Positions 1 through 46,987 of a stretch of DNA of 64,000 nt are shown in pieces. Source of the stretch: an uncultured Pseudanabaenaceae cyanobacterium (lineage in GTDB: Bacteria > Cyanobacteriota > Cyanobacteriia > PCC-9006 > JAAUQQ01); NCBI GenBank assembly GCA_938002085.1, contig CALLAT010000074.1, positions 21,173 to 85,172 of the forward strand, read 5' to 3'. Under the pieces are notes generated by a model that saw nothing but the letters and a program-made list of their open reading frames with translations, was not told the DNA's origin and did not search any database. Position numbers and translations under genes: made by a program. Positions within the stretch are counted from its first letter, which is position 1. Every line of letters starts with the position of its first letter.

Positions 1-471
1 ATCGGTCGGTATTCCCCCATTGGGCACAAAATCAATGTCGTAGCGCAGCACCACAGGCCCTTGCTGGGAGAAGTAGTAGGCCCGATCAAAACCAGAGCCC
101 CCATCGAGCTGGTTGTCGCCACTTCCACCAAACAAGCGATCGCTACCAGCGCCACCGTTCAGACTATCGTTGCCCGATCCGCCAAATAGCCAGTCCGAAC
201 CGCCATTGCCAGACAACGTATCGTTGCCACCGAGGCCAAAGATGATGTCAGTGAATGAACCGCCAGAAAGCGTGTCATCGCCACTGGTGCCAATTTGGAA
301 GCCCGGAAAACGAGAGCGCCTGGAAGAACGACGAGAAGGCTGGAGGGCAGAAGAGCCTGACTTTAGAACGGGCTCAGCAAAAACGAGGGACGAGCGTATC
401 AGCTCGAGAGATAGGCCCTCTGAGAGGGATAGCTTGGCGATCGCTGCGGCTGAAAATGCAGAAGCAGTCAT
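1..471 (-). CDS. RTX / hemolysin-type calcium-binding repeat protein, N-terminal part (runs off the window edge)
   Basis: Reverse-strand frame with ATG at 471-469, open to position 1 (157 codons). It is absent from the ORF track because it has no stop in the window. My translation: [15 protein letters not shown]...[71 protein letters not shown]. These are tandem GGxGxDxL nonapeptides. Confidence 0.75.
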
Positions 472-2639: not shown

Positions 2640-5600
2640 TTAAGCGGTTTCAACGGCACAGGAAGGTGATTCAGAGGCTTCAGAATCAGCTCCCTCAATT
2701 TGGCGTTGATATTGCTCTAGCTCAAGGGTCAAAGCCAACTCCAATCGCTGGGTTTCGTGCTTCAAACGAGCTTCTAGCTCTGGATAATCAGGGTGCTCGC
2801 TGCGGGCTTCTGTCTCTAGCAATCGGCAAACCTCACTCAGATCGGCGCCCCCTTGATTGCCCACAAAGGACTTGAAATGATGGGCTAGCTGGAACACCTC
2901 CTCATGGCTGTGGGTGGCGATCGCCGCCTCAAGCTCAACCTGATGCCCTGGCCAATCCTGGAGAAAGGCCTGGATACTCTCCACAATTTTGGGAGCCGCT
3001 TTATCCCCATAAAGGGTGTGATAGGTATTAAACAAATACCGCTTCTCCAAGACCGCTGGAGTGACCTCGTTGGATGGAGGCGTTGCAGTGGGACTCAATG
3101 GCTGAGACCCAACAGCCTCCTTACCCTGCGCTGGCGTTAGCCTTTCCTCAACCACTTGCCCAGCCATCCCATGTGATTCAAACCAGTCACGGAATAGGGA
3201 TTCCAACATTTCCAGGCTAATGGGCTTCTGGAGAATTTGATCCATGCCAGACGTTGCGAACTCATCGGAGCCTTCGGCGATCGCAGTCCCCGTCACCCCA
3301 ACAATAAAAGGTTGAGACGAGTCGTCATAAAGCGCTCTAATCTGCTGCACGGCCTTAGGCCCAGTCAATCCAGGCATCTGGAAATCCAGCATCAACAAGT
3401 CATAGGCCACGGCTTTACAGGCTTCTACCGCCTCCAATCCGTTGCTCACGATACAGGCCTGATGGCCCAAATAGGTCAGCATTTCCTGCATGACCCGTTG
3501 GTTACTCAGTTCATCTTCAGCCACCAAAATATTCAACAGAGCCGGTGCCGTTTTAGGTCGGACTGACGTATCTGCATCAGCTCCAGCAGCAGAGGCGATC
3601 GCCACTTTGGCTGCCATCGCAACAGATTCTGAACCCCCATTAGCATCAGCCACAGCACCATCGGCATAGCGGTAGCGAACACCAAGATGCTTGGCCAATG
3701 TCTCGACTAAATCTTGCTCCTGAAATGGCTTACGCACAAAGTCATCACAACCTGCCTCTAAGGCGATCTGATGATCCTCTTCAAAAGCATTTGCAGTTAG
3801 CGCTACGATAACGGGCGGATGCTCCTGGGCCAAGGCTTTAATTTTCCGCGTGGCCGCATACCCATCCATCACAGGCATGCGCATATCCATCCAAATCAGC
3901 GCAGGCGACCAAGTTTGCCATTGTTGAATGGCTTCCTGGCCATTAACAGCTTCCCGTACCTCAAAGCCAAGGTCTAACAGTAAGTCAACCAACAAGAGAC
4001 GATTGACCGCCTTATCTTCAACGACGAGAATTTTAGGCGTCGGCTGGTCAGGCGCTAAGCCCATCACCTGCCTAGCAGGAGCAACCATCTTTTCATTTTG
4101 GGCTTGGGCCGCGCGACCGGCCTGAATCGAGAAGTGGAAGCTAGAACCAACTCCCACCTCACTTTCCACAGAAATATTGCCTCCCATCAACTCAATAAAC
4201 TGCCGACAAATGGTGAGGCCTAATCCTGTACCTTCATGGGAATCTACGCCGGCTTGGGTTTGGGCAAAGGCTTCAAAAATGATGCCCAACTCTTCAGATG
4301 CGATACCCGGTCCTGTATCTTGCACCGAAAAATTGAGCGTGAGATTCCCAGCGCTATCGTCTTCTTCTGAGGAATCCACAGCACAGCTCACCGAAGACTT
4401 CAGTGTCACTGAGCCCTTCTCGGTAAACTTCAGCGCATTACCGAGCAAGTTAATCAAGATCTGCCTTAACTTCCCCTCATCAGCCACAACATACTCAGGT
4501 AAGTCATTGGCCAGTTCAAACTTCAGCGAGATCTGCTTAGAGATTGCAGTATTTTCTAGCATGTCCTCTAAAGTACTGAGGAAAACCGGCAGATGAATGA
4601 GATTGTCTTCTAATTGGGCTTCTCCGGCCTCGATTCGAGACATGGCTAGCACCCCATTAATCAGCGACAGTAAGTGCTCTCCACTTTGGCCAATCGTATT
4701 CAATCTTTGACACTGTTGCTCCGTCAACGATGCATCTCGATTCAACAGTTGGGCCATGCCCAAAATGGCATTCAATGGTGTGCGGAGTTCATGGCTCATA
4801 GTGGCCAGAAAGCGGCTCTTAGCCTGACTTGCAGAGTCTGCAGCCTGGCGAGCGGCCTCAGTCTCACTGAGAAACTTAGCTTGTTGAATTGCTATGCCTA
4901 ACTGAGTTGCAATTTGTCTCGTCAACTCCTTCTCTTTCTCATTCCAAAAACGCGGACCTGAGCATTGATGAATACAAACCAATCCCCAAAGGGTTTCTCC
5001 ATCAAAGAGGGGAGCCACTAAATTGGCCTTAATTTCAAATTTCTGCAGCATCTCCCGATAGCAGCTTTGAGCCTCAGCCTGCTCGACATCATTGATAAAG
5101 TAGATCTGCTCTTGAGTCTTCTGATTTTTATACTTATCGTCAAAAAAACAAGGCTCTTCGATAAACTGATTTAAAGCCGCAGGATAATCTCCCTCCACAT
5201 CTTCGGCCACAACTTTTCCTGCCTTATAGTCTTGACTCGGCAAGAATCTAAAGATCGCGACTCGATCAGCATTTAGTAATCGGCGTAGCTCACTTGTGGT
5301 GGTGGTAAAGATCGTCGTGAGTTCCAGTGAATCTCGGATCTTCTTAATCACCGTATTGAGAATTCTCTGCTGTTCTGCTGCCGAAGCCAGCGCTTCAGAT
5401 TGAAGTTTGACTTTTTCAATTGACTGGCTTTGCTGGAGCGCAACCCCCAGGTGAGTCGCCACTTGAGAGAGGAAAGAAACTTCTGATTCTTCCCAGGTTC
5501 TAACACGCTCATGCTGATAAGCTCCCAGCAATCCCCAGAGTTTCTGGTCCACAAAGAGGGGAGCAATCATATAGGCCTGAACACAGTAATGTTCTAGGAC

Positions 5601-7400
5601 TTCGATATGGCAAGGAGAGAGCTCTGAATTATGGACATCATGAATGACAGAGATTTTCCCATCTCGATATTGAGACCCCTTGGTCTCTTGCATATAGGAG
5701 TCATTCCATCTCTTTCGAGTAGCTAGAATCGTATCCTTCCAGCCCACACTGACAGTGCCAAATTCATCGACAAACTCTCCTCCCCAGTCTGGGTCGAAGC
5801 GAAAGACTGCAACGCGGTCCACTTTCAACAACTGCTGCATCTCTTGGGTGGCAGTCTTGAATAAGTCGCGCATTTCCAGGGGCTTCTGGAGTTTTGCCAG
5901 AATATTCGCGAGGGTCCGTTGCTGATTGGCGATCACGGTCGAATGCTCCAGCTCTACCGTGCGAATACGCACTTGCCGCTCTAGGTTGCTATTGAGCGCC
6001 TGGACCTGTTGATTGAGCTGGAACTGCTTCACTGCCACAGAAAAGCGTTCTCCCAGAGAGCGAATGAGGCGCTGTTCCACATCAGTCCATTTCTGAGCTT
6101 GCCCTTGCATCACTTGCCGCCAAGCATCAAAGGATTGGCGAGGAGCCAACTGGCGCTCATCCGGCGCGTGATAACCAGCCCAGGTAATTTCCTGATCGAT
6201 GGCATCACGGAAAATGGTCAGGCAGCCAATCAAGCTTCCACCATAATGGAGTGGACAAATGAGGAGACCTCGCACATCCGTTTCTTGAAAGTGGGGGGAG
6301 ACCGATCGCAAAAGCGGCTCTTTATACAAGTCTGCGATCGCCCAAACCCTGGGCGACTCCCCGACGACGGAATGGGCCAAGGGATCTTGGGCATAGGTCG
6401 TCTTCATCCAAGCCACAGACCAGGGCTCTAGTTGCTCAGACTCTGCACTCCGATTCAATGTGGACAGCAAATACCGCTGCCAAATTTGATGCTCTTCTAC
6501 GAGACGGAGCTGCCCTCCCACATCACCTGGCAAGAGCGTGGGTTGACTACCCACCTGATACACCGTCGGGGGCTGATGAGCATTGGCTCCAAATAGATAT
6601 AGACGTCCACCCGAACCTTGATACACCGCCACAGTTTCATTCAGGGCTTGTTGCAACTGCACCTGAGCGGGCGTATATAAAAGCGCGGTCACCCGATTAA
6701 GCTCAGCCTCTAAACGGGCCTGTTCTCGCACCTTCTCCAACAGCACAGACTGGGAGATGGCCACAGAGACCTGATCCACCACCAGCTGAATAAAATCCAG
6801 TTCTGCTGCCGATACCGTTCGAGGTTGAGCGTTGTGAGAGATCAGGAGCCCCCACAACTTGCCGACTTTAGGTTGACCCGTCTCTTCTTGGGCAACTGCT
6901 CCAGATTGTTCCAAAACGATGGGAACCACGACGGAAGATTGGACCCCCATAGCCAGTAGGTACTCTAAATGGCAGGGGTCAATCCTACGAGTGCTCAACT
7001 GGGTATAAACCCAAGCAGAGCAGGATTTTTCAGGATCTAACTGGCTCGTAAAAACAGATTTTTTGTCAATTTCAACAATCGTTCGCTGCCGCTGCTGTAA
7101 GAGCAGCTCACGGGTGTAGGGAGGAATATCATCAACGGGAAAATGCAGGCCTTTAAGGGGAGGCAGGTTCTCTGCATTTAGGGCTTCTGCAATCACCCAG
7201 CCATGGCCATCGGGTAAAAACTGATAGATTTCGACGCGATCCGTTGCGAGGTAATCTCGAACTTCCGCCACTGTGGTGGAGAGGATTGCTGGCAGATCGA
7301 GGGAATTTCGAATTCGGTTGGTAATCCGATTCAGCAAAAGTTGTTCCGACGTCCCCGTAGAGGCGGACCGGACGAAATTGGAGAAACTATGCTGATTCAT
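2640..7400 (-). CDS. Multi-GAF phytochrome-like hybrid sensor histidine kinase (GAF-PHY, GAF, GAF, HisKA-HATPase, REC, REC, HPt)
   Basis: 1586-aa ORF with ATG at 7400. Motifs read by eye: phytochrome GAF (HFPVDDIPPYTREL; DPCHLEYLLAMGVQSSVVVPI); PHY tongue (WAG...PRQSF); two further GAFs (DRVAVFRFDPDWGGEFV...SPCHIEVLEHYCVQAYMIAPLF; DRVAIFRF...SCYREMLQKFEIKANLVAPLF); H-box MSHELRTPLNAILG; ATPase boxes GNALKFT, DTGPGI, GTGLGL; two receivers (ILVVEDKAVNR...MDMRMPVMDG; ILVAEDELSNQ...LDFQMPGLTG); HPt-like QLAHHFKSFVGNQG. Confidence 0.9.
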   Translation of the reverse strand: MNQHSFSNFVRSASTGTSEQLLLNRITNRIRNSLDLPAILSTTVAEVRDYLATDRVEIYQFLPDGHGWVIAEALNAENLPPLKGLHFPVDDIPPYTRELLLQQRQRTIVEIDKKSVFTSQLDPEKSCSAWVYTQLSTRRIDPCHLEYLLAMGVQSSVVVPIVLEQSGAVAQEETGQPKVGKLWGLLISHNAQPRTVSAAELDFIQLVVDQVSVAISQSVLLEKVREQARLEAELNRVTALLYTPAQVQLQQALNETVAVYQGSGGRLYLFGANAHQPPTVYQVGSQPTLLPGDVGGQLRLVEEHQIWQRYLLSTLNRSAESEQLEPWSVAWMKTTYAQDPLAHSVVGESPRVWAIADLYKEPLLRSVSPHFQETDVRGLLICPLHYGGSLIGCLTIFRDAIDQEITWAGYHAPDERQLAPRQSFDAWRQVMQGQAQKWTDVEQRLIRSLGERFSVAVKQFQLNQQVQALNSNLERQVRIRTVELEHSTVIANQQRTLANILAKLQKPLEMRDLFKTATQEMQQLLKVDRVAVFRFDPDWGGEFVDEFGTVSVGWKDTILATRKRWNDSYMQETKGSQYRDGKISVIHDVHNSELSPCHIEVLEHYCVQAYMIAPLFVDQKLWGLLGAYQHERVRTWEESEVSFLSQVATHLGVALQQSQSIEKVKLQSEALASAAEQQRILNTVIKKIRDSLELTTIFTTTTSELRRLLNADRVAIFRFLPSQDYKAGKVVAEDVEGDYPAALNQFIEEPCFFDDKYKNQKTQEQIYFINDVEQAEAQSCYREMLQKFEIKANLVAPLFDGETLWGLVCIHQCSGPRFWNEKEKELTRQIATQLGIAIQQAKFLSETEAARQAADSASQAKSRFLATMSHELRTPLNAILGMAQLLNRDASLTEQQCQRLNTIGQSGEHLLSLINGVLAMSRIEAGEAQLEDNLIHLPVFLSTLEDMLENTAISKQISLKFELANDLPEYVVADEGKLRQILINLLGNALKFTEKGSVTLKSSVSCAVDSSEEDDSAGNLTLNFSVQDTGPGIASEELGIIFEAFAQTQAGVDSHEGTGLGLTICRQFIELMGGNISVESEVGVGSSFHFSIQAGRAAQAQNEKMVAPARQVMGLAPDQPTPKILVVEDKAVNRLLLVDLLLDLGFEVREAVNGQEAIQQWQTWSPALIWMDMRMPVMDGYAATRKIKALAQEHPPVIVALTANAFEEDHQIALEAGCDDFVRKPFQEQDLVETLAKHLGVRYRYADGAVADANGGSESVAMAAKVAIASAAGADADTSVRPKTAPALLNILVAEDELSNQRVMQEMLTYLGHQACIVSNGLEAVEACKAVAYDLLMLDFQMPGLTGPKAVQQIRALYDDSSQPFIVGVTGTAIAEGSDEFATSGMDQILQKPISLEMLESLFRDWFESHGMAGQVVEERLTPAQGKEAVGSQPLSPTATPPSNEVTPAVLEKRYLFNTYHTLYGDKAAPKIVESIQAFLQDWPGHQVELEAAIATHSHEEVFQLAHHFKSFVGNQGGADLSEVCRLLETEARSEHPDYPELEARLKHETQRLELALTLELEQYQRQIEGADSEASESPSCAVETA

Positions 7401-8006
7401 AAGTTCTAAAATCGATGGATTGAAAGACTAATCTTCAATCTCACAAAAAAATGGTCTTGTCCTGAATTCCTCGAAGGCGCAGCCGCCTCTCCCTTAGCCC
7501 ATCACAAGAAATGATGACTAAATGCTTTCAACCCGACTCACTTTTACTATTCCCGAACAAGCCAGACAGAGGGCTTAGCCAGCTTATAATTCAGTATCTA
7601 CACGCGTGTTAACGACGAAAAACTAAGTAGAACGGGCGAGAAGAAATTCAGTTCTGAGAGACAACCCAGTATTCAAAAGACATCAAAAGGCAGCATTTCA
7701 TCAGTACTTCAGACTCTCTCTAAATCACTTTTAGTTCGAAGAAAGTGACCGAATCCAGAAGCTTTAATCGCAAATGACAGATGTTAAGGCAACAGGCCTT
7801 TCCCCAAGAAGCCATAACTCAGCAAGCTTGAACAAGAGATAGTTGATCAACAGCCACTCGAACCAGCAATCGACACCTCACGACCGGCTTTTCACCTCGC
7901 CGATCTCCTTAAGACTCGCAACAATATGGCCTAACTGACTCCTAGAGCCCAGTTTGAAATGATACGTTTAGCCCCATTGTGCTTATGCCAGGAAGAGAGT
8001 CTAACG

Positions 8007-9302
8007 ATGCAAATTCGAGGGGTAAAGTGGATTGCTGTGGCGATCGCCACAGCTAGCATCACGGTCATTTGCGCCACAACCTTGCATGTTATTGGCCAAA
8101 ACAAAGTCCAGACAGTCCGCCTGGCCACGGGTAGCAGTAGCGGCGAATACTATGCCTTTGGTCAGGCGATCGCCCAGGTCACCCAACGCCATTACCCCAA
8201 GCTCAACATTGACGTGGTGGAATCCTCTGGATCGGCTCAAAATATGGCGAATGTCGATGCAGGCATCGTGGAACTGGCAATGGTCCAAAGCGACACGCCC
8301 ACCCAACGGAATGTCCAGGCAGTCGCTTCCCTCTATCCCGAGATGTACCACTTCATTGCGGGGAGCAAAAGCCAGATTACCAGCCTCAAAGACATGAGAG
8401 GCAAGCGCATTGCCATCATGCCCGAAGGCAGCGGCTCCCATAGTCTGTTTTGGCCCCTAATAGCTCACTATGGCTTGGCTCCAGAAGACATTACGACCTT
8501 ACCCATGACTGCAACAGAGGCCTATCAAGCCCTGGAGGGCGATCGCGTCGAGGCCCTGTTCCAAGTCATCGGCCTAGGCAACGAAGCCATTGGCAATCTG
8601 CTCCGGTCAGGCAAGGCCAAGCTCGTGCCGATCCAACAAATTGGCTCCCTGCAACTCTCCCAGCCATATCTGGAAACCGTCACGATTCCCCAAGGCGCCT
8701 ATGACGGGGGCAAACCCATCCCCGCCCAAGACCTGCCCGCCGTTAGCGTCAGTGCCTTGCTCATCGCCAATCAAAACGTAGAGCCGGAATTGATTCACAG
8801 CATCACGAAGGTGTTGTATGAGCATCGCAGTGAATTAATTGCCATCAACCCTCGCACAGCCCGCATCCAGCATCCTGAGGCCAGCCGCAATCTGGGTTTT
8901 CCGCTCCATGCGGGAGCCAGCAGCTACCACAACAAAGACAAGCCCAGTTTTTTGATCGAGTACGCTGAACCGATTGGCTTACTCGTTTCCGTTGGTGTTC
9001 TGCTAGCTTCGAGTCTTTGGCAGCTGCGCCAATGGCTGCTCAACCGCCAGAAGGACCGAGCAGACATGTACAACCTGGAGATTCTCAAACTGATTGAATC
9101 AGTCAAACAATCCCAACGAGTCGAAGAGCTAGAAACGATCCAAGACCAGCTCCTAAAAATCTTCAGGCAAGTGGTGGTCGATCTCGATGAAGATCGCATC
9201 TCGCCGGAATCGTTCCAGTCCTTCACGTTTCCCTTTGAGGTCGCACTCTCCAGCATTCGCCACCAGGAATTGCTGCTGACCAATAGCTTCGTCAGGCGCT
9301 GA
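8007..9302 (+). CDS. TAXI-family TRAP-type solute-binding protein with C-terminal membrane anchor and coiled-coil tail
   Basis: The ORF track gives 7959..9302. The first ATG followed by a hydrophobic leader (MQIRGVKWIAVAIATASITVICA) is at 8007. LATGSSSGEYYAFGQAIAQV matches the TAXI signature. The last ~120 aa hold a TM helix (PIGLLVSVGVLLASSLWQL) and a heptad-like region. Confidence 0.7.
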   Translation: MQIRGVKWIAVAIATASITVICATTLHVIGQNKVQTVRLATGSSSGEYYAFGQAIAQVTQRHYPKLNIDVVESSGSAQNMANVDAGIVELAMVQSDTPTQRNVQAVASLYPEMYHFIAGSKSQITSLKDMRGKRIAIMPEGSGSHSLFWPLIAHYGLAPEDITTLPMTATEAYQALEGDRVEALFQVIGLGNEAIGNLLRSGKAKLVPIQQIGSLQLSQPYLETVTIPQGAYDGGKPIPAQDLPAVSVSALLIANQNVEPELIHSITKVLYEHRSELIAINPRTARIQHPEASRNLGFPLHAGASSYHNKDKPSFLIEYAEPIGLLVSVGVLLASSLWQLRQWLLNRQKDRADMYNLEILKLIESVKQSQRVEELETIQDQLLKIFRQVVVDLDEDRISPESFQSFTFPFEVALSSIRHQELLLTNSFVRR

Positions 9303-9800
9303 GGTTTCGCTGGACCTGGATATCAGCGCTTTTCCGCAGGAATTATTTTGAGCCTTAGGCTGTCCGCAAAAGCCAAGCTCTCCAAACTTGTTGCTAATGT
9401 TGCTAATCCTTCTCCCTCCAGCAGAACGCGGGCTCCGTGGCCTCGCGGAATCAGGTCCAGCGAATGTCGAAACCACTCAACGGAGCATAATCGAAGGCGT
9501 ATTTTCTCATCCTCATGACATAAAACAGCTGGAGAACCTACGCGACAGCGACCGAACTTTCTCCAGATAACGATTTGATTGAACTTGACTCCCATGGGGA
9601 TATCAGCATTACTGACATTAACACCAGTCAGATAACCATCAACCCCAACTGGGACAATGCCGGAGGAACCGGAGGAATAGGTTCTATGCTGCTGACCTAA
9701 AATTTTGCCACCCCATTCAAGCGTATCCACATCGAGCTCAAACATTCTGCATTGCCAGCGCTTTGAGAAGCATCATGTCACAAGCTATTTATAACGCTCC

Positions 9801-10376
9801 TCAGATCTCCAATGCCTCCGGTTCAGTCTCGGTCGCTGCACCTGTACCGCCAAAGCCCACAGCGCTACTGGCATAGCTTCCGCCAAAGTTCTCGGCCAGA
9901 TTGTTCACCTGCAAAATGGCAGAGCGCGCATCCCGTTCTTGCAAGGTCGAGAGCGGATGGATAAACACCGAGACAACAAGGCCATTGCTCACCGCATAGC
10001 GCGCATCCAAGGCAGAGTGAAAATTGGCCAGCATCATGGATTGCACTTCCTCAACCGATAGCTCGCTAGTAGGCTTAATCGGCATCATGAGGCGCATGCG
10101 ATCAGCCTCTGCATTCGTTACCACCAGCATGGAGCGCTCTCCCAGGGTGGCTTCCCATTGACCATTTTCCCCTTCCACCGCATCCGCTTGGGACTGCAAA
10201 ATTGCCTCTAGCCGCTCCACCGTCATCACTTCGAGACGCGGCTGCTGGGCAATGGGCTGCTGGGCAATGGCAGGAGAGACTCTCAGTCCAGGTAGAGCCT
10301 CAGCTCCCCCCAGCATTAACCCCAAACTGCCCAGGGCAACCACAGCAAAGGGGCGAATAAAAAAATGGCGTGCCAT
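9801..10376 (-). CDS. Secreted hypothetical protein (possibly a YbjN/T3SS-chaperone-like fold)
   Basis: 191-aa ORF with ATG at 10376. Signal-like leader MARHFFIRPFAVVALGSLGLMLGGAEA. Short tandem duplication AQQPIAQQP. The body (VERLEAILQ...WEATLGERSMLVVTNAEADRMRLMMPI...) weakly recalls YbjN-type domains. The family call is low confidence. Confidence 0.55.
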   Translation of the reverse strand: MARHFFIRPFAVVALGSLGLMLGGAEALPGLRVSPAIAQQPIAQQPRLEVMTVERLEAILQSQADAVEGENGQWEATLGERSMLVVTNAEADRMRLMMPIKPTSELSVEEVQSMMLANFHSALDARYAVSNGLVVSVFIHPLSTLQERDARSAILQVNNLAENFGGSYASSAVGFGGTGAATETEPEALEI

Positions 10377-10758: not shown

Positions 10759-11643
10759 CTATATTTTTTTGAAAGTCTCTAGGGCTGAGAAATAGGAAGT
10801 CTGCACCTGCTCACCGCAACAGTCTCGCAGCCGCTGCTCAAGACCTAACATGAGCTTCTTGCGCTGGCCTGCCTCTAAGAGGATGTAGGGTGACAGCGAC
10901 TGGAGCAGAGCCAAGTAGTCTTCCACAGTATAGGAAAGCTCAACGTCAATGCGCTCAAACCCAAGACTGACAAATCCGCTGCTGGTCCAGCCGTCAAACG
11001 CCACCAGCTTTTGCCCCACATCCCGCAGCTGTTGTTCCTGTTTAGTGCGGTCCACAAAGGTCTCTAGGTTAGAACCATGGGCATCGTAAATGGGCTGGAG
11101 CGATCGCCAAACTGCTTCACTGGGCTGGGGCGGCACATTCCACAACAGCAAAACAGAACCACCTGGCTTGAGCGCTTGGTCGATCTTGGGATACCCCAGC
11201 TCTGGCGAAACCCAATGGAAGGACGTCGCCGCCACGACTCCATCAAAGGCTGCCACCTCCCCAGGCCATTCTTCAAAGGTTTGATTCGCGACCTCCACCT
11301 TGGGGTAAGCAGCACAGCGCGATCGCAAAATCTCACAACCCGCCACGCTAGGCTCCACCGCCGTAACCCTAAAGCCCTGCTCCGCTAGGGGCAATGTTGC
11401 AATGCCCGGTCCACTGCCAATTTCCAGCAGGCGATGACCGGCCTGCAAGCCCGTCATCGCCATCGCCCGCTCAAACAGCTCAGCGGGGTAGCGAGGTCGC
11501 GCCCGGTCATAAGCTTCTGCAACCGGGTCATACCAGCGCCGCCGTTGCTCAAGACTGTGGGAGTCGCTGTAGTACCCCCCTTGGGCGATGGCCTTCGGGC
11601 TATATTTTGGGTCGGGTTCCGAGCTGGGTTGTGGATTAGACAA
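10759..11643 (-). CDS. Class I SAM-dependent methyltransferase
   Basis: 294-aa ORF. Motif I LLEIGSGPGIATLPLA, followed by VTAVEPS. The codon at 11643-11641 is TTG. The first in-frame ATG would cut into the conserved pre-motif-I region, so the exact start is uncertain. Confidence 0.75.
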   Translation of the reverse strand: MSNPQPSSEPDPKYSPKAIAQGGYYSDSHSLEQRRRWYDPVAEAYDRARPRYPAELFERAMAMTGLQAGHRLLEIGSGPGIATLPLAEQGFRVTAVEPSVAGCEILRSRCAAYPKVEVANQTFEEWPGEVAAFDGVVAATSFHWVSPELGYPKIDQALKPGGSVLLLWNVPPQPSEAVWRSLQPIYDAHGSNLETFVDRTKQEQQLRDVGQKLVAFDGWTSSGFVSLGFERIDVELSYTVEDYLALLQSLSPYILLEAGQRKKLMLGLEQRLRDCCGEQVQTSYFSALETFKKI

Positions 11644-11808
11644 GGGCTTGGGAGCGAGGATGAAATTAGAGGATTTCGATTAATTCTAGGGCTGACATGG
11701 CAATGCCATGTCACTACAGCAGCCGGTTTAACAAAACAAAGCGGGCTACGGAATCATTTTCCCGCAACCCGCCTTATCACCAACCCACTATCCCCAAGCT
11801 TCAATCAA

Positions 11809-12273
11809 CTAGGAGAGATAAACAAACCGAACGGGCAATTCCGTTTGGGGCACTTCGATAACTGCTTTAGCGTTGTGCTTGGACCAAGGACGAGAGAAGC
11901 GGCTGACGTAAACCACCATCTCATCCGCCAAAACTTTAACCCGCTCAATGCTAGGCACCTCACGGAAAAACCCTTCGCCAGCAAAGACCGCCAGCACCAT
12001 GGACTTCTCAAAGTCTACGGCAGGGGCATCAGCGATCTCCCCACCATGCTCCGTCCACAGCTGACCCAAAAACTCCGCCGTCTTAACTGCAACGCAGCCA
12101 GCCACGGGCGAAGGAGCGGCCCAGTTCAGGGATTGCTGACGATTTCTGGCTGCGCTCGCGGAACGGGAAAAAGGCGTTACAAACTGAGTACCCGACTCAG
12201 CCACAACCGCTTCAATCGGTTCTGTCAGGGCAACGGCAGAATGATTACGAACGAGCTCTTGAACTTCTGCCAT
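11809..12273 (-). CDS. Hypothetical protein
   Basis: The ORF track gives 11809..12336. The first ATG with a sensible N-terminus (MAEVQELVRNH...) is at 12273. No family recognised. Confidence 0.5.
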   Translation of the reverse strand: MAEVQELVRNHSAVALTEPIEAVVAESGTQFVTPFSRSASAARNRQQSLNWAAPSPVAGCVAVKTAEFLGQLWTEHGGEIADAPAVDFEKSMVLAVFAGEGFFREVPSIERVKVLADEMVVYVSRFSRPWSKHNAKAVIEVPQTELPVRFVYLS

Positions 12274-12695
12274 GACCCTTTCCTCTAAATGGATAAATGC
12301 TTCAAACCCTATCCGGCAGCCCAAGGCAACCATCAATTCATCTAATCACTCGTGCAATTCAGATAAGTTCAGAATGCCCGCAAGGTCATCGAACTCTTCT
12401 ATTGCCTAAGTACATTACAAAGCTTAATAGAAATAGCCCCCAACAAACCGTACACGACGAGCAAATTTGCTTATTAAGACCATAGGCTGACCGCGATTGC
12501 AGACAGGTTTCAAACAGGAGCCGCTATTTATCCGATGACAGATGACTCAATCCAGTCACATTTCGAACAGCAACGGTCAACCTCCATGACAGTATTCAAC
12601 GATTCGTAGACAGCCCCCCATCCTGCGGCAGCAGAAGGATAGATCGCGGTAAAATCCGATCAAGCCACATATCCATTGCAACGAACGCAAGCACC

Positions 12696-46270: not shown

Positions 46271-46987
46271 ATGAGCGTTAATCTTGCAACCCAACTTCGG
46301 GAAGGTACTAAAACCTCTCACACCATGGCTGAGAACGTGGGCTTTGTCCGCTGTTTTCTACGCGGGGTCGTGGAGAAGAATTCTTATCGTAAACTCGTAG
46401 CGGATCTGTACTTCGTCTACTCCGCGATGGAAGAGGAGTTTGACCGCCTGAAGGACCACCCCGTGGTTTCCAAGATTTACTTCCCTCTGCTGCACCGCAA
46501 AGCTTCTCTCGAGAAAGATTTGCAGTACTACTTCGGTAGTGATTGGAAGAGCAATGTTAAAGCCTCCAAGCCTGCCCAGAAATATGTGGACCGCATTCAC
46601 CAAGTTGCCCAGGAATCTCCTGAGCTGTTGGTCGCTCACTCCTACACTCGTTACCTCGGCGATCTGTCCGGCGGTCAAATCCTGAAGAAGATTGCCGTCA
46701 ACGCAATGAACCTAAACGACGGCGTAGGTACTGCGTTCTATGAATTTCCTGAAATCGATGACGAGAAGGCATTCAAGGACATGTATCGCGCTGCGATGAA
46801 TGATCTGCCCATTGAGCAGGAAGCTGCTGACCGCATTGTTGAAGAAGCAAACGATGCATTCGGTCGCAACATGGAAATGTTCAAGGAGCTGGAAGGCAAC
46901 TTGATCAAGGCCATTGGCGTGATGGTGTTCAACAGCCTCAACCGCCGCCGCAGCAAGGGCAGCACCATGGCTCCCAATGCTGGCTAG
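46271..46987 (+). CDS. ho1: Heme oxygenase 1
   Basis: 238-aa ORF with ATG at 46271. N-terminus LATQLREGTKTSHTMAENVGFVRCFLRG (proximal His helix) and SYTRYLGDLSGGQILKKIA are classical heme oxygenase motifs. Confidence 0.92.
   Translation: MSVNLATQLREGTKTSHTMAENVGFVRCFLRGVVEKNSYRKLVADLYFVYSAMEEEFDRLKDHPVVSKIYFPLLHRKASLEKDLQYYFGSDWKSNVKASKPAQKYVDRIHQVAQESPELLVAHSYTRYLGDLSGGQILKKIAVNAMNLNDGVGTAFYEFPEIDDEKAFKDMYRAAMNDLPIEQEAADRIVEEANDAFGRNMEMFKELEGNLIKAIGVMVFNSLNRRRSKGSTMAPNAG

Follow-up and report, generated by a model that had tools for sequence, protein, structure and literature searches.

A predicted knotless phytochrome module at the head of a 1586-aa hybrid histidine kinase from a Pseudanabaenaceae-like cyanobacterium

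The locus described here raises the question of whether a long hybrid kinase, encoded in a ~63%-complete Pseudanabaenaceae-like MAG, is headed by a genuine knotless phytochrome, and whether such a module belongs to a known photoreceptor family. A sequence-only reading had placed a knotless GAF-PHY module at the head of a 1586-aa hybrid kinase in the window, i.e., the whole 64-kb stretch of DNA analyzed. The open reading frame and the Pfam domains agree with this assignment, and script placement on the translation of the open reading frame showed every motif and coordinate of that reading to be exact. The gene is as follows:

2640..7400, minus strand: whole gene, 1586 aa, with the domain order GAF-PHY-GAF(CBCR)-GAF(CBCR-like)-HisKA-HATPase-REC-REC-HPt

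Pfam domains of the protein comprise GAF (E 7e-64) and PHY, followed by HisKA, HATPase_c, two Response_reg, and Hpt. A PHY HMM match, which had been proposed as a check, was obtained with PF00360 at 47 bits against a curated gathering cut-off of 27 (E 2.4e-12); the match covers aa 364-457 and profile positions 79-178 of 183, i.e., the C-terminal half of the model only. The encoded protein is very probably (with a probability of roughly 0.86) a soluble multi-colour photoreceptor kinase, the N-terminal 470 residues of which constitute the photosensory module of a knotless phytochrome of Group II (Cph2 / All2699 / SyB-Cph1-type).

The earlier claim that the protein leaves no room for an N-terminal PAS domain or knot is corroborated by the surrounding sequence. 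The GAF helix begins at ~aa 22, and an in-frame TAG stop is located at 7428-7430, 9 codons upstream of the ATG. No PAS-sized frame is present in the 558-bp spacer at 7401-7958, in which the minus-strand stop-to-stop ORFs are at most 37 aa, and no Pfam match to PAS_2 is found in the 1586-aa protein at E<=1. A hidden upstream PAS, overlooked through a frameshift or a wrong start, is ruled out by this stop and these short frames. Furthermore, a canonical Group I Cph1/BphP phytochrome, i.e., a PAS-GAF-PHY protein with PAS_2 threaded through the knot lasso, is rejected because the protein has neither PAS_2 nor room for one; its NCBIfam BphP equivalog score is 129 bits against a cut-off of 1040.

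The similarity to knotless phytochromes extends over the whole module. Each of the best phmmer matches in the PDB is a knotless phytochrome (8w26, E 6e-74; 6ozb/6oza, ~1e-46; 2lb5, 1e-44; 4bwi, 5e-40), and the alignment with Cph2 forms one stretch across GAF and PHY, from aa 22-459 to Cph2 residues 10-420. The AF2 model of the protein (pLDDT 75, pTM 0.65) retrieves 8w26 (E 8e-30), 4bwi (E 7e-27), and 6ozb (TM 0.88) as its first Foldseek matches. None of the observations conflicts with this homology. The features of the first domain are as follows:

6735..7337, minus strand: GAF1, predicted phytochrome-type bilin-binding domain, aa ~22-222 (PDB phmmer, conservation, Foldseek)
7104..7145, minus strand: DIP block HFPVDDIPPYTREL, aa 86-99 (script placement; alignment to All2699)
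6972..6974, minus strand: Cys143 codon TGC, predicted bilin thioether attachment site (alignment and homologue conservation)
6858..6914, minus strand: GAF1 loop of ~20 residues, aa 162-181, between the β-strand VVVPI and LWGLL (alignment gaps)

In the PDB search, the matches to 6ozb, 6oza, 2lb5, and 2k2n span aa 13-220 of the 1586-aa protein. The pocket of GAF1 comprises Tyr59, the DIP motif (Asp91), Arg138, Cys143-His144, Tyr147, and His189, of which Cys143 and the following His144 are placed by script within DPCHLEYLLAMGVQSSVVVPI (aa 141-161). Alignment of Cys143 with the canonical GAF cysteine had also been proposed as a check, and the expected position was found: Cys143-His144 is aligned to Cys129-His130 of Cph2 and Cys138-His139 of All2699, and Cys143 additionally to Cys138 of SyB-Cph1. 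Y59, D91, and H189 pair with Y55, D87, and H169 of All2699 in the alignment; Asp91 corresponds to Asp87 of All2699 and Asp207 of Cph1 on the basis of published equivalences (PMC6696110). From the alignment end-points (query 23-164 to Cph1 140-280), assuming that the last 22 residues are gap-free, and from the published Cph2 / All2699 / Cph1 equivalences, Cys143 would correspond to Cys259 of Cph1. The position is occupied by Cys in 120/120 homologues, and Y59, D91, C143, Y147, S156, H189, W407, S423, F424, and W427 are invariant in the same set, with H144, G409, and R421 each present in 119/120. The loop at aa 162-181 has ~20 residues as against ~5 at the same position in All2699, SyB-Cph1, and Cph2, and is exactly 20 residues long in 93/120 homologues; it is, as judged from these alignments, a clade-specific 15-aa insertion. 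Residues 167-178 within it are modelled by AF2 with pLDDT <50.

The second half of the module provides the PHY domain and its tongue:

5991..6683, minus strand: PHY domain, aa ~240-470 (Pfam PF00360, Cph2 alignment to aa 459, AF2 and Foldseek)
6105..6209, minus strand: PHY tongue, aa ~398-432, with W407-A-G, P420-R-Q-S-F, and W427-R-Q (Cph2 alignment, conservation)

The tongue is aligned without gaps to WAG...PRLSF..WEE of Cph2, with WAG at aa 407-409 (nt 6182-6174, minus strand) and PRQSFDAW at aa 420-427 (nt 6143-6120, minus strand). The third tongue motif, WxE in Cph2, reads W-R-Q here; Trp427 is invariant in the 120 homologues, and the Glu position is occupied by Gln429, with Gln in 94/120 homologues and Glu in 22/120. 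The WxQ tongue is apparently a conservative, clade-level variant. AF2 models the tongue at aa 404-430 with pLDDT <50, and its secondary structure shows a long helix (aa 440-479) that closes the PHY domain and runs on to the next GAF. We infer bilin binding and photochemistry of the GAF-PHY module from these sequence relationships. Since the N-terminal 470 aa appear to be a genuine PAS-less red/far-red phytochrome module of the Cph2 / All2699 / SyB-Cph1 type, the knotless module of this kinase is, by prediction, an ordinary member of that well-studied red/far-red family.

Two CBCR-type GAFs between PHY and the kinase (aa ~505-660 and ~685-845) are left out of the sequence-only account of the knotless module, the same reading having listed them as findings of their own:

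5421..5888, minus strand: GAF3, red/green-type CBCR GAF with Cys597-His, aa ~505-660 (PDB phmmer)
4866..5348, minus strand: GAF4, CBCR-like GAF, aa ~685-845 (PDB phmmer)

GAF3, which is conserved among orthologues, matches AnPixJg2 (3w2z/5zoh) and NpR6012g4 (6bhn) in the PDB with E ~1e-47, and GAF4 matches 6oap and 6bhn with E 5e-32 and 5e-31, respectively. GAF4 carries EPCF (Cys751) at the DXCF position, and its Cys780 is followed by Tyr, not His; remoter orthologues have a true DxCF, and Cys-Tyr is retained in 13/15 orthologues. The photosensory region thus also contains two CBCR GAFs, and the kinase therefore probably integrates more than red/far-red light. A bolder proposal is that the protein is a three-chromophore colour integrator, in which the knotless red/far-red module acts together with a CBCR of the red/green type and with a GAF of DXCF descent that has a conserved Tyr after the canonical Cys in place of the near-universal His. 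This proposal is considered unlikely. Should the "Cys-Tyr" GAF represent a CBCR subtype not yet characterised in its spectra or chemistry, and should the GAF1 loop of the clade and its WxQ tongue tune the phytochrome module, the family would count as a variant, no longer as a routine case.

The output side, for which a histidine kinase, two receivers, and an HPt domain had been read from the sequence, is upheld by the Pfam domains and by conserved phospho-acceptor residues:

4623..4823, minus strand: HisKA / DHp, H-box SHELRTP, His870 (Pfam, motif inspection, orthologues)
4122..4481, minus strand: HATPase_c catalytic domain with N, G1, and G2 boxes present (Pfam, motifs)
3696..4031, minus strand: receiver 1, aa 1124-1235, Asp1172 (Pfam, motifs, orthologues)
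3201..3530, minus strand: receiver 2, aa ~1291-1400, Asp1338 (second Response_reg stretch in Pfam; motifs)
2739..2975, minus strand: HPt, aa 1476-1554, His1507 (Pfam PF01627, 31.7 bits against a cut-off of 24.6)

In REC1, D1172 is accompanied by the Thr of ALTANA and the Lys of VRKPF, and in REC2, D1338 by the Thr of VGVTGT and the Lys of LQKPI. H870, D1172, D1338, and H1507 are conserved in full-length orthologues, and the HPt His is aligned in 14 orthologues. The protein is a one-chain hybrid histidine kinase with HPt, having the residue set of a multistep phosphorelay, and phosphotransfer is predicted. No response regulator is found beside the kinase gene at its flanks, where a TAXI/NMT1_3 binding protein is encoded divergently and a GMC oxidoreductase convergently; the TAXI / GMC synteny is present, by ORF size and position, in two related MAG contigs (L006 and L008).

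A mechanism may be drawn, step by step, from characterised relatives. GAF1 would autocatalytically bind phycocyanobilin, supplied by the heme oxygenase and PcyA of the cell, at Cys143, and red and far-red light would interconvert the 15Z Pr and 15E Pfr states. The PHY tongue (WAG / PRQSF / W427) would close the pocket, and upon its refolding Arg421 or Ser423 would alternately pair with Asp91. In All2699g1-g2, PCB is bound, Pr and Pfr absorb at 638 and 705 nm, and the tongue motifs touch the chromophore (PMC6696110). A shift of the helix that leaves the PHY domain (aa 440-479) may then be transmitted along a helical spine, through the two CBCR GAFs adding colour inputs, to the DHp, such that light would set the level of His870 autophosphorylation. 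The phosphoryl group would be relayed within the protein from His870 to Asp1172 (REC1) and His1507 (HPt), and from there to an unlinked response regulator, with REC2 (Asp1338) serving perhaps as a second acceptor or phosphate sink.

The pigment supply bears on a different reading, in which the photocycle or chromophore is non-canonical (for instance an adduct with PEB or PVB, a cycle that is blue-shifted or runs between orange and far-red, or a bathy behaviour with Pfr stable in the dark) and not a plain red/far-red switch with a Pr dark state. Two PcyA paralogues are encoded in the genome (322 and 305 bits against an equivalog cut-off of 206), together with PebA and PebB, indicating that phycoerythrobilin is also made. 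PEB in place of PCB in GAF1 would yield a fluorescent, non-switching adduct. All2699g1 can bind PEB (6ozb), the isolated All2699g1 has shifted maxima (685 nm as against 705 nm with PHY; PMC6696110), and both the 15-aa loop insertion and the WxQ tongue are traits of the clade itself. However, all pocket residues equal those of ordinary Pr/Pfr knotless phytochromes, which in the literature are almost exclusively Pr/Pfr, and a conserved second Cys is missing: Cys127, considered as a second functional GAF1 cysteine, was rejected, being Cys in only 2/120 homologues and Gly in 103. A non-canonical cycle is accordingly regarded as improbable. A heme oxygenase (PF01126) is matched at 46280-46888 of the window, ~39 kb from the kinase gene, and is therefore not co-transcribed with it, so that an operon link between the kinase and its chromophore supply is rejected. 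With this heme oxygenase and the two PcyA, the host has the enzymes required for making the chromophore, in keeping with the knotless phytochrome assignment.

It is more improbable still that the GAF-PHY module has kept the phytochrome fold without light sensing, acting only in dimerisation or as a scaffold while the CBCR GAFs or a non-bilin ligand provide the sensing. The change of the WxE Glu to Gln would fit such a loss, as would Arg138 (the equivalent of Cph1 Arg254), which the three nearest orthologues replace by Ser; yet the alignment places Thr at this position in Cph2, which is itself photoactive. Moreover, Cys-His, the DIP Asp, Tyr59, Tyr147, His189, W(A)G, and the Arg, Ser, and Phe of PRxSF are invariant or nearly so across the 120 homologues, the pattern predicted by selection for bilin photochemistry. 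Identity with the far-red photoacclimation regulator RfpA, the FaRLiP master regulator and likewise a PCB-binding knotless red/far-red phytochrome histidine kinase, has a negligible probability and orthology is ruled out by domain order and gene neighbourhood, since RfpA is GAF-PHY-PAS-HK and its gene belongs to an rfpB-rfpA-rfpC operon within the FaRLiP cluster (PMC4658448), whereas the present protein has two CBCR GAFs in place of the PAS, plus REC-REC-HPt, and TAXI-type binding protein and GMC oxidoreductase genes as conserved neighbours.

The ordinary knotless red/far-red module is thus retained as the preferred reading, and the 1586-aa kinase probably gives the organism red/far-red sensing plus extra colours via an ArcB-style phosphorelay. 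Within what is assembled of the ~63%-complete genome, no second phytochrome with a PHY domain is found. The sensor layout of the kinase recurs in 14 further cluster representatives with a length of 1400 aa or more, extending through HPt in 13 of the 14, and the few named relatives carry in public records only the name "GAF domain-containing protein"; the main gain is better annotation. Sensors that join a knotless module to CBCRs are common and have been described before, and structural and spectroscopic characterisation exists for knotless phytochromes that are followed by CBCR GAFs and a kinase output (All2699, SyB-Cph1, Cph2, RfpA). As a further candidate scaffold, a small fragment of the protein, either GAF alone or GAF-PHY, could be of use in optogenetics or for fluorescent proteins.

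Among the known systems, SyB-Cph1 of Synechococcus sp. JA-2-3B'a (8w26 for GAF-PHY; 2k2n/2lb5 for GAF) is the best match in both sequence (E 6e-74) and structure (E 8e-30). It likewise has a knotless GAF-PHY at the head of a histidine kinase, the solved constructs spanning GAF and GAF-PHY only, and its tongue reads PLxSF...WRE as compared with PRQSF...WRQ here. Cph2 of Synechocystis sp. PCC 6803 (4bwi) is the founding knotless phytochrome; it is only ~26-27% identical, has a tongue of equal length with WAG and PRxSF, carries Cys129 at the position of Cys143, and likewise has a two-Cys (DXCF) CBCR GAF following its knotless module, although its output is GGDEF/EAL (c-di-GMP) and not a kinase. 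On the output side, ArcB, BarA, and TorS similarly carry HisKA-HATPase-REC...HPt with His, Asp, and His acceptors on one chain, but they have periplasmic or membrane sensors in contrast to the cytoplasmic photosensory GAF input, and in the present kinase REC1 and HPt are separated by an additional receiver; its partial NCBIfam matches to these three (360-436 bits) fall far under the equivalog cut-offs (677-890), and membership in any of them is rejected. All2699 of Nostoc sp. PCC 7120 (GAF1-PHY/GAF2-GAF3(CBCR)-HK; 6oza/6ozb) also combines a knotless GAF-PHY with a CBCR GAF and then a kinase. Its GAF1 is 45-46% identical (TM 0.88 in Foldseek) and has the pocket Tyr, Asp, Cys-His, and His in common with the present protein, as well as the tongue motifs, whereas the present protein adds a second CBCR-like GAF, two receivers and an HPt, and the 15-aa insertion in the GAF1 loop.

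The evidence supports a knotless (Group II) phytochrome module as the photosensory N-terminus of the hybrid histidine kinase. The sequence-only reading, which placed a knotless module atop the kinase, is upheld by Pfam domains, PDB matches, residue alignment, and the lack of a PAS domain. The protein is encoded by one long ORF, in which the following were matched, by Pfam unless otherwise indicated.

2640..7400 (-): hybrid kinase, 1586 aa
four stretches: GAF (E 7e-64)
aa 364-457: PHY (PF00360; 47 bits vs gathering cut-off 27; E 2.4e-12)
aa ~505-660, 5421-5888 (-): GAF3 (phmmer vs PDB, E about 1e-47 to AnPixJg2 and NpR6012g4)
aa ~685-845, 4866-5348 (-): GAF4, CBCR-like (phmmer vs PDB, E 5e-32 to 6oap)
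aa 860-926: HisKA
aa 974-1093: HATPase_c
two stretches, best aa 1124-1235: Response_reg
aa 1476-1554: Hpt

The PHY match thus exceeds its gathering cut-off, and the proposed output side of kinase, two receivers, and HPt is matched throughout, with the phospho-acceptors His870, Asp1172, Asp1338, and His1507 all present and conserved among orthologues. A script check bore out each claimed motif and coordinate: HFPVDDIPPYTREL (aa 86-99), DPCHLEYLLAMGVQSSVVVPI (aa 141-161, in which Cys143, encoded by TGC at 6974-6972, directly precedes His144), and, in the PHY-domain tongue, WAG at aa 407-409 (6182-6174) and PRQSFDAW at aa 420-427 (6143-6120). In NCBIfam, the hybrid-kinase equivalogs TorS, BarA, and ArcB give partial, sub-threshold matches, placing the protein outside these families, and the BphP equivalog scores 129 bits against a cut-off of 1040, placing it outside that family as well.

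No Pfam match to PAS_2 occurs in the 1586-aa protein, even at E<=1. The earliest possible start is the ATG at 7400, preceded at a distance of nine codons by an in-frame TAG (7428-7430), and, in the stop-to-stop ORF list, the minus-strand frames of the 558-bp spacer to the next gene are all <=37 aa; therefore, neither a wrongly called start nor a frameshift conceals a PAS there, and the predicted absence of an N-terminal PAS or knot holds. Canonical Cph1/BphP identity is ruled out because there is no PAS.

When aa 1-481 were queried by phmmer against all PDB chains, the top matches were knotless phytochromes, i.e., 8w26 (SyB-Cph1 GAF-PHY, E 6e-74), 6ozb/6oza (All2699 GAF1 with PEB or PCB, E about 1e-46), 2lb5/2k2n (SyB-Cph1 GAF), and 4bwi (Synechocystis Cph2, E 5e-40, a single stretch over aa 22-459), and GAF-only matches to plant phytochromes, bacteriophytochromes, and Cph1 ranked lower (~1e-23 to 1e-16). 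In the alignments, Tyr59 corresponds to All2699 Tyr55, and Cys143-His144 to All2699 Cys138-His139 and Cph2 Cys129-His130, which puts Cys143 at the chromophore cysteine of these knotless phytochromes; Asp91 of the DIP motif aligns with All2699 Asp87 and Cph1 Asp207, and His189 with All2699 His169 and Cph1 His290 (All2699/Cph1 equivalences from PMC6696110). The Cph1 match pairs query 23-164 with chain 140-280, so that Cys143 would fall on Cph1 Cys259, provided that the last 22 aligned residues are ungapped. The tongue aligns with that of Cph2 without gaps (tWAGyhapderqlaPRqSFdaWrq / hWAGkrgidrrnilPRlSFeaWee), and differs from the Cph2 signature solely where WxE has Glu (Gln429 here).

With an alignment of 37 sequences as input, AlphaFold2 modelled aa 1-480 at a mean pLDDT of 75.3 and a pTM of 0.65; confidence is low in the tongue (aa 404-430) and an inserted GAF1 loop, and a long PHY exit helix covers aa 440-479. 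Foldseek against the PDB ranked 8w26 first (E 8e-30, TM 0.67 on target), followed by 4bwi (E 7e-27, TM 0.69), All2699g1 (TM 0.88), and PAS-GAF-PHY phytochromes; this ranking identifies the stretch from GAF1 to the Pfam PHY match as the N-terminal half of PHY, as in Cph2.

Among 5.8 billion proteins, a word-indexed search yielded 428 relatives, and conservation was assessed in the best 120 of these. Tyr59, Asp90, Asp91, Pro93, Arg97, Asp141, Cys143, Tyr147, Ser156, and His189 are invariant, as are Trp407, Ser423, Phe424, and Trp427 of the tongue, and His144, Gly409, and Arg421 each occur in 119. At the WxE position, the Gln of the query is shared by 94 of the 120 and Glu occurs in 22, a conservative variant at clade level. 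Cys127, 16 residues ahead of Cys143, is Cys in just 2/120, and a two-Cys photocycle in GAF1 is thus without support. Between the strand VVVPI and LWGLL, GAF1 carries a loop of ~20 residues (aa 162-181, 6858-6914 (-)), whereas All2699, SyB-Cph1, and Cph2 have ~5; the loop, of low model confidence, is variable in sequence and identical in length in 93/120. Arg138 (aa 138-139, 6984-6989 (-)), assigned from the aligned YRPVD context as the probable equivalent of Cph1 Arg254, is retained in 116/120; it is Ser in the three nearest orthologues, and Cph2 has Thr.

The assembly (3.96 Mb, 176 contigs) is roughly 63% complete. The kinase gene is its only PHY match, and the sole heme oxygenase found in it lies ~39 kb away, not in the same operon. 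The surroundings and the bilin genes are as follows.

1-471 (-): partial edge-of-window ORF with RTX calcium-binding nonapeptide repeats (PF00353, E 2e-17)
7959-9302 (+): divergent upstream gene, 447-aa NMT1_3/TAXI-type solute-binding protein without a permease nearby; similar-sized ORF at this position in related MAGs
9323-9745 (-), 9801-10376 (-), 11434-12288 (+): ORFs of 140, 191, and 284 aa without a Pfam match at E<=0.001; 186-aa ORFs similarly placed in related MAGs may be counterparts of the 191-aa ORF
46280-46888 (+): heme oxygenase (PF01126, E 7e-88)
G000 (own genome) C85:24284-25787, C88:18571-19239, C112:3877-4563: PebB next to PebA, plus two separate PcyA paralogues

These four ferredoxin-dependent bilin reductases all exceed their equivalog cut-offs. 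On one side of the kinase gene lies the divergent TAXI/NMT1_3 binding protein and on the other a convergent GMC oxidoreductase, with no adjoining response regulator. The nearest orthologues (79-82% identical) occur in three uncultured Pseudanabaenaceae MAGs, in two of which the flanking ORFs agree in size and position. A module homologue (E<=1e-30) is found in 14 of 31 related cyanobacterial genomes, own included, among them 3 of the 4 other genomes of the genus. Identity with the FaRLiP regulator RfpA is ruled out by differing domains and a differing gene neighbourhood.

By analogy with All2699, Cph2, SyB-Cph1, and RfpA, the knotless module most likely carries phycocyanobilin on Cys143 and alternates between Pr and Pfr; the tongue would refold, and the signal would pass through the PHY exit helix. 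GAF3, with W..D.Y.QE and Cys597-His, is by sequence a clear red/green-type cyanobacteriochrome, making it probable that the protein holds at least two bilins. GAF4 carries EPCF (Cys751) at the DXCF position, 29 residues ahead of Cys780, a spacing presumably close to that of the two TePixJ cysteines, and Cys780 is followed by Tyr in place of the near-universal His. Among the query and 14 other cluster representatives >=1400 aa, this Cys-Tyr is kept in 13/15, and remoter orthologues have a true DxCF; the conserved Cys-Tyr, which lies outside the GAF-PHY finding, is the gene's most unusual feature. Given its two CBCR GAFs, the kinase probably integrates several colours, and its REC-REC-HPt tail points to an ArcB-like His-Asp-His relay ending on an unlinked regulator.

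The family, architecture, and mechanism of such knotless kinases are already described, and public data include same-layout orthologues under labels no more specific than GAF-domain protein or, from JGI, bacteriophytochrome-type kinase. The layout [knotless GAF]-[PHY]-[green/blue or red/green GAF] is normal according to a survey of CBCR architectures (preprint 10.1101/2022.09.22.509050), and All2699 is arranged as GAF1-PHY-GAF3(CBCR)-HK.
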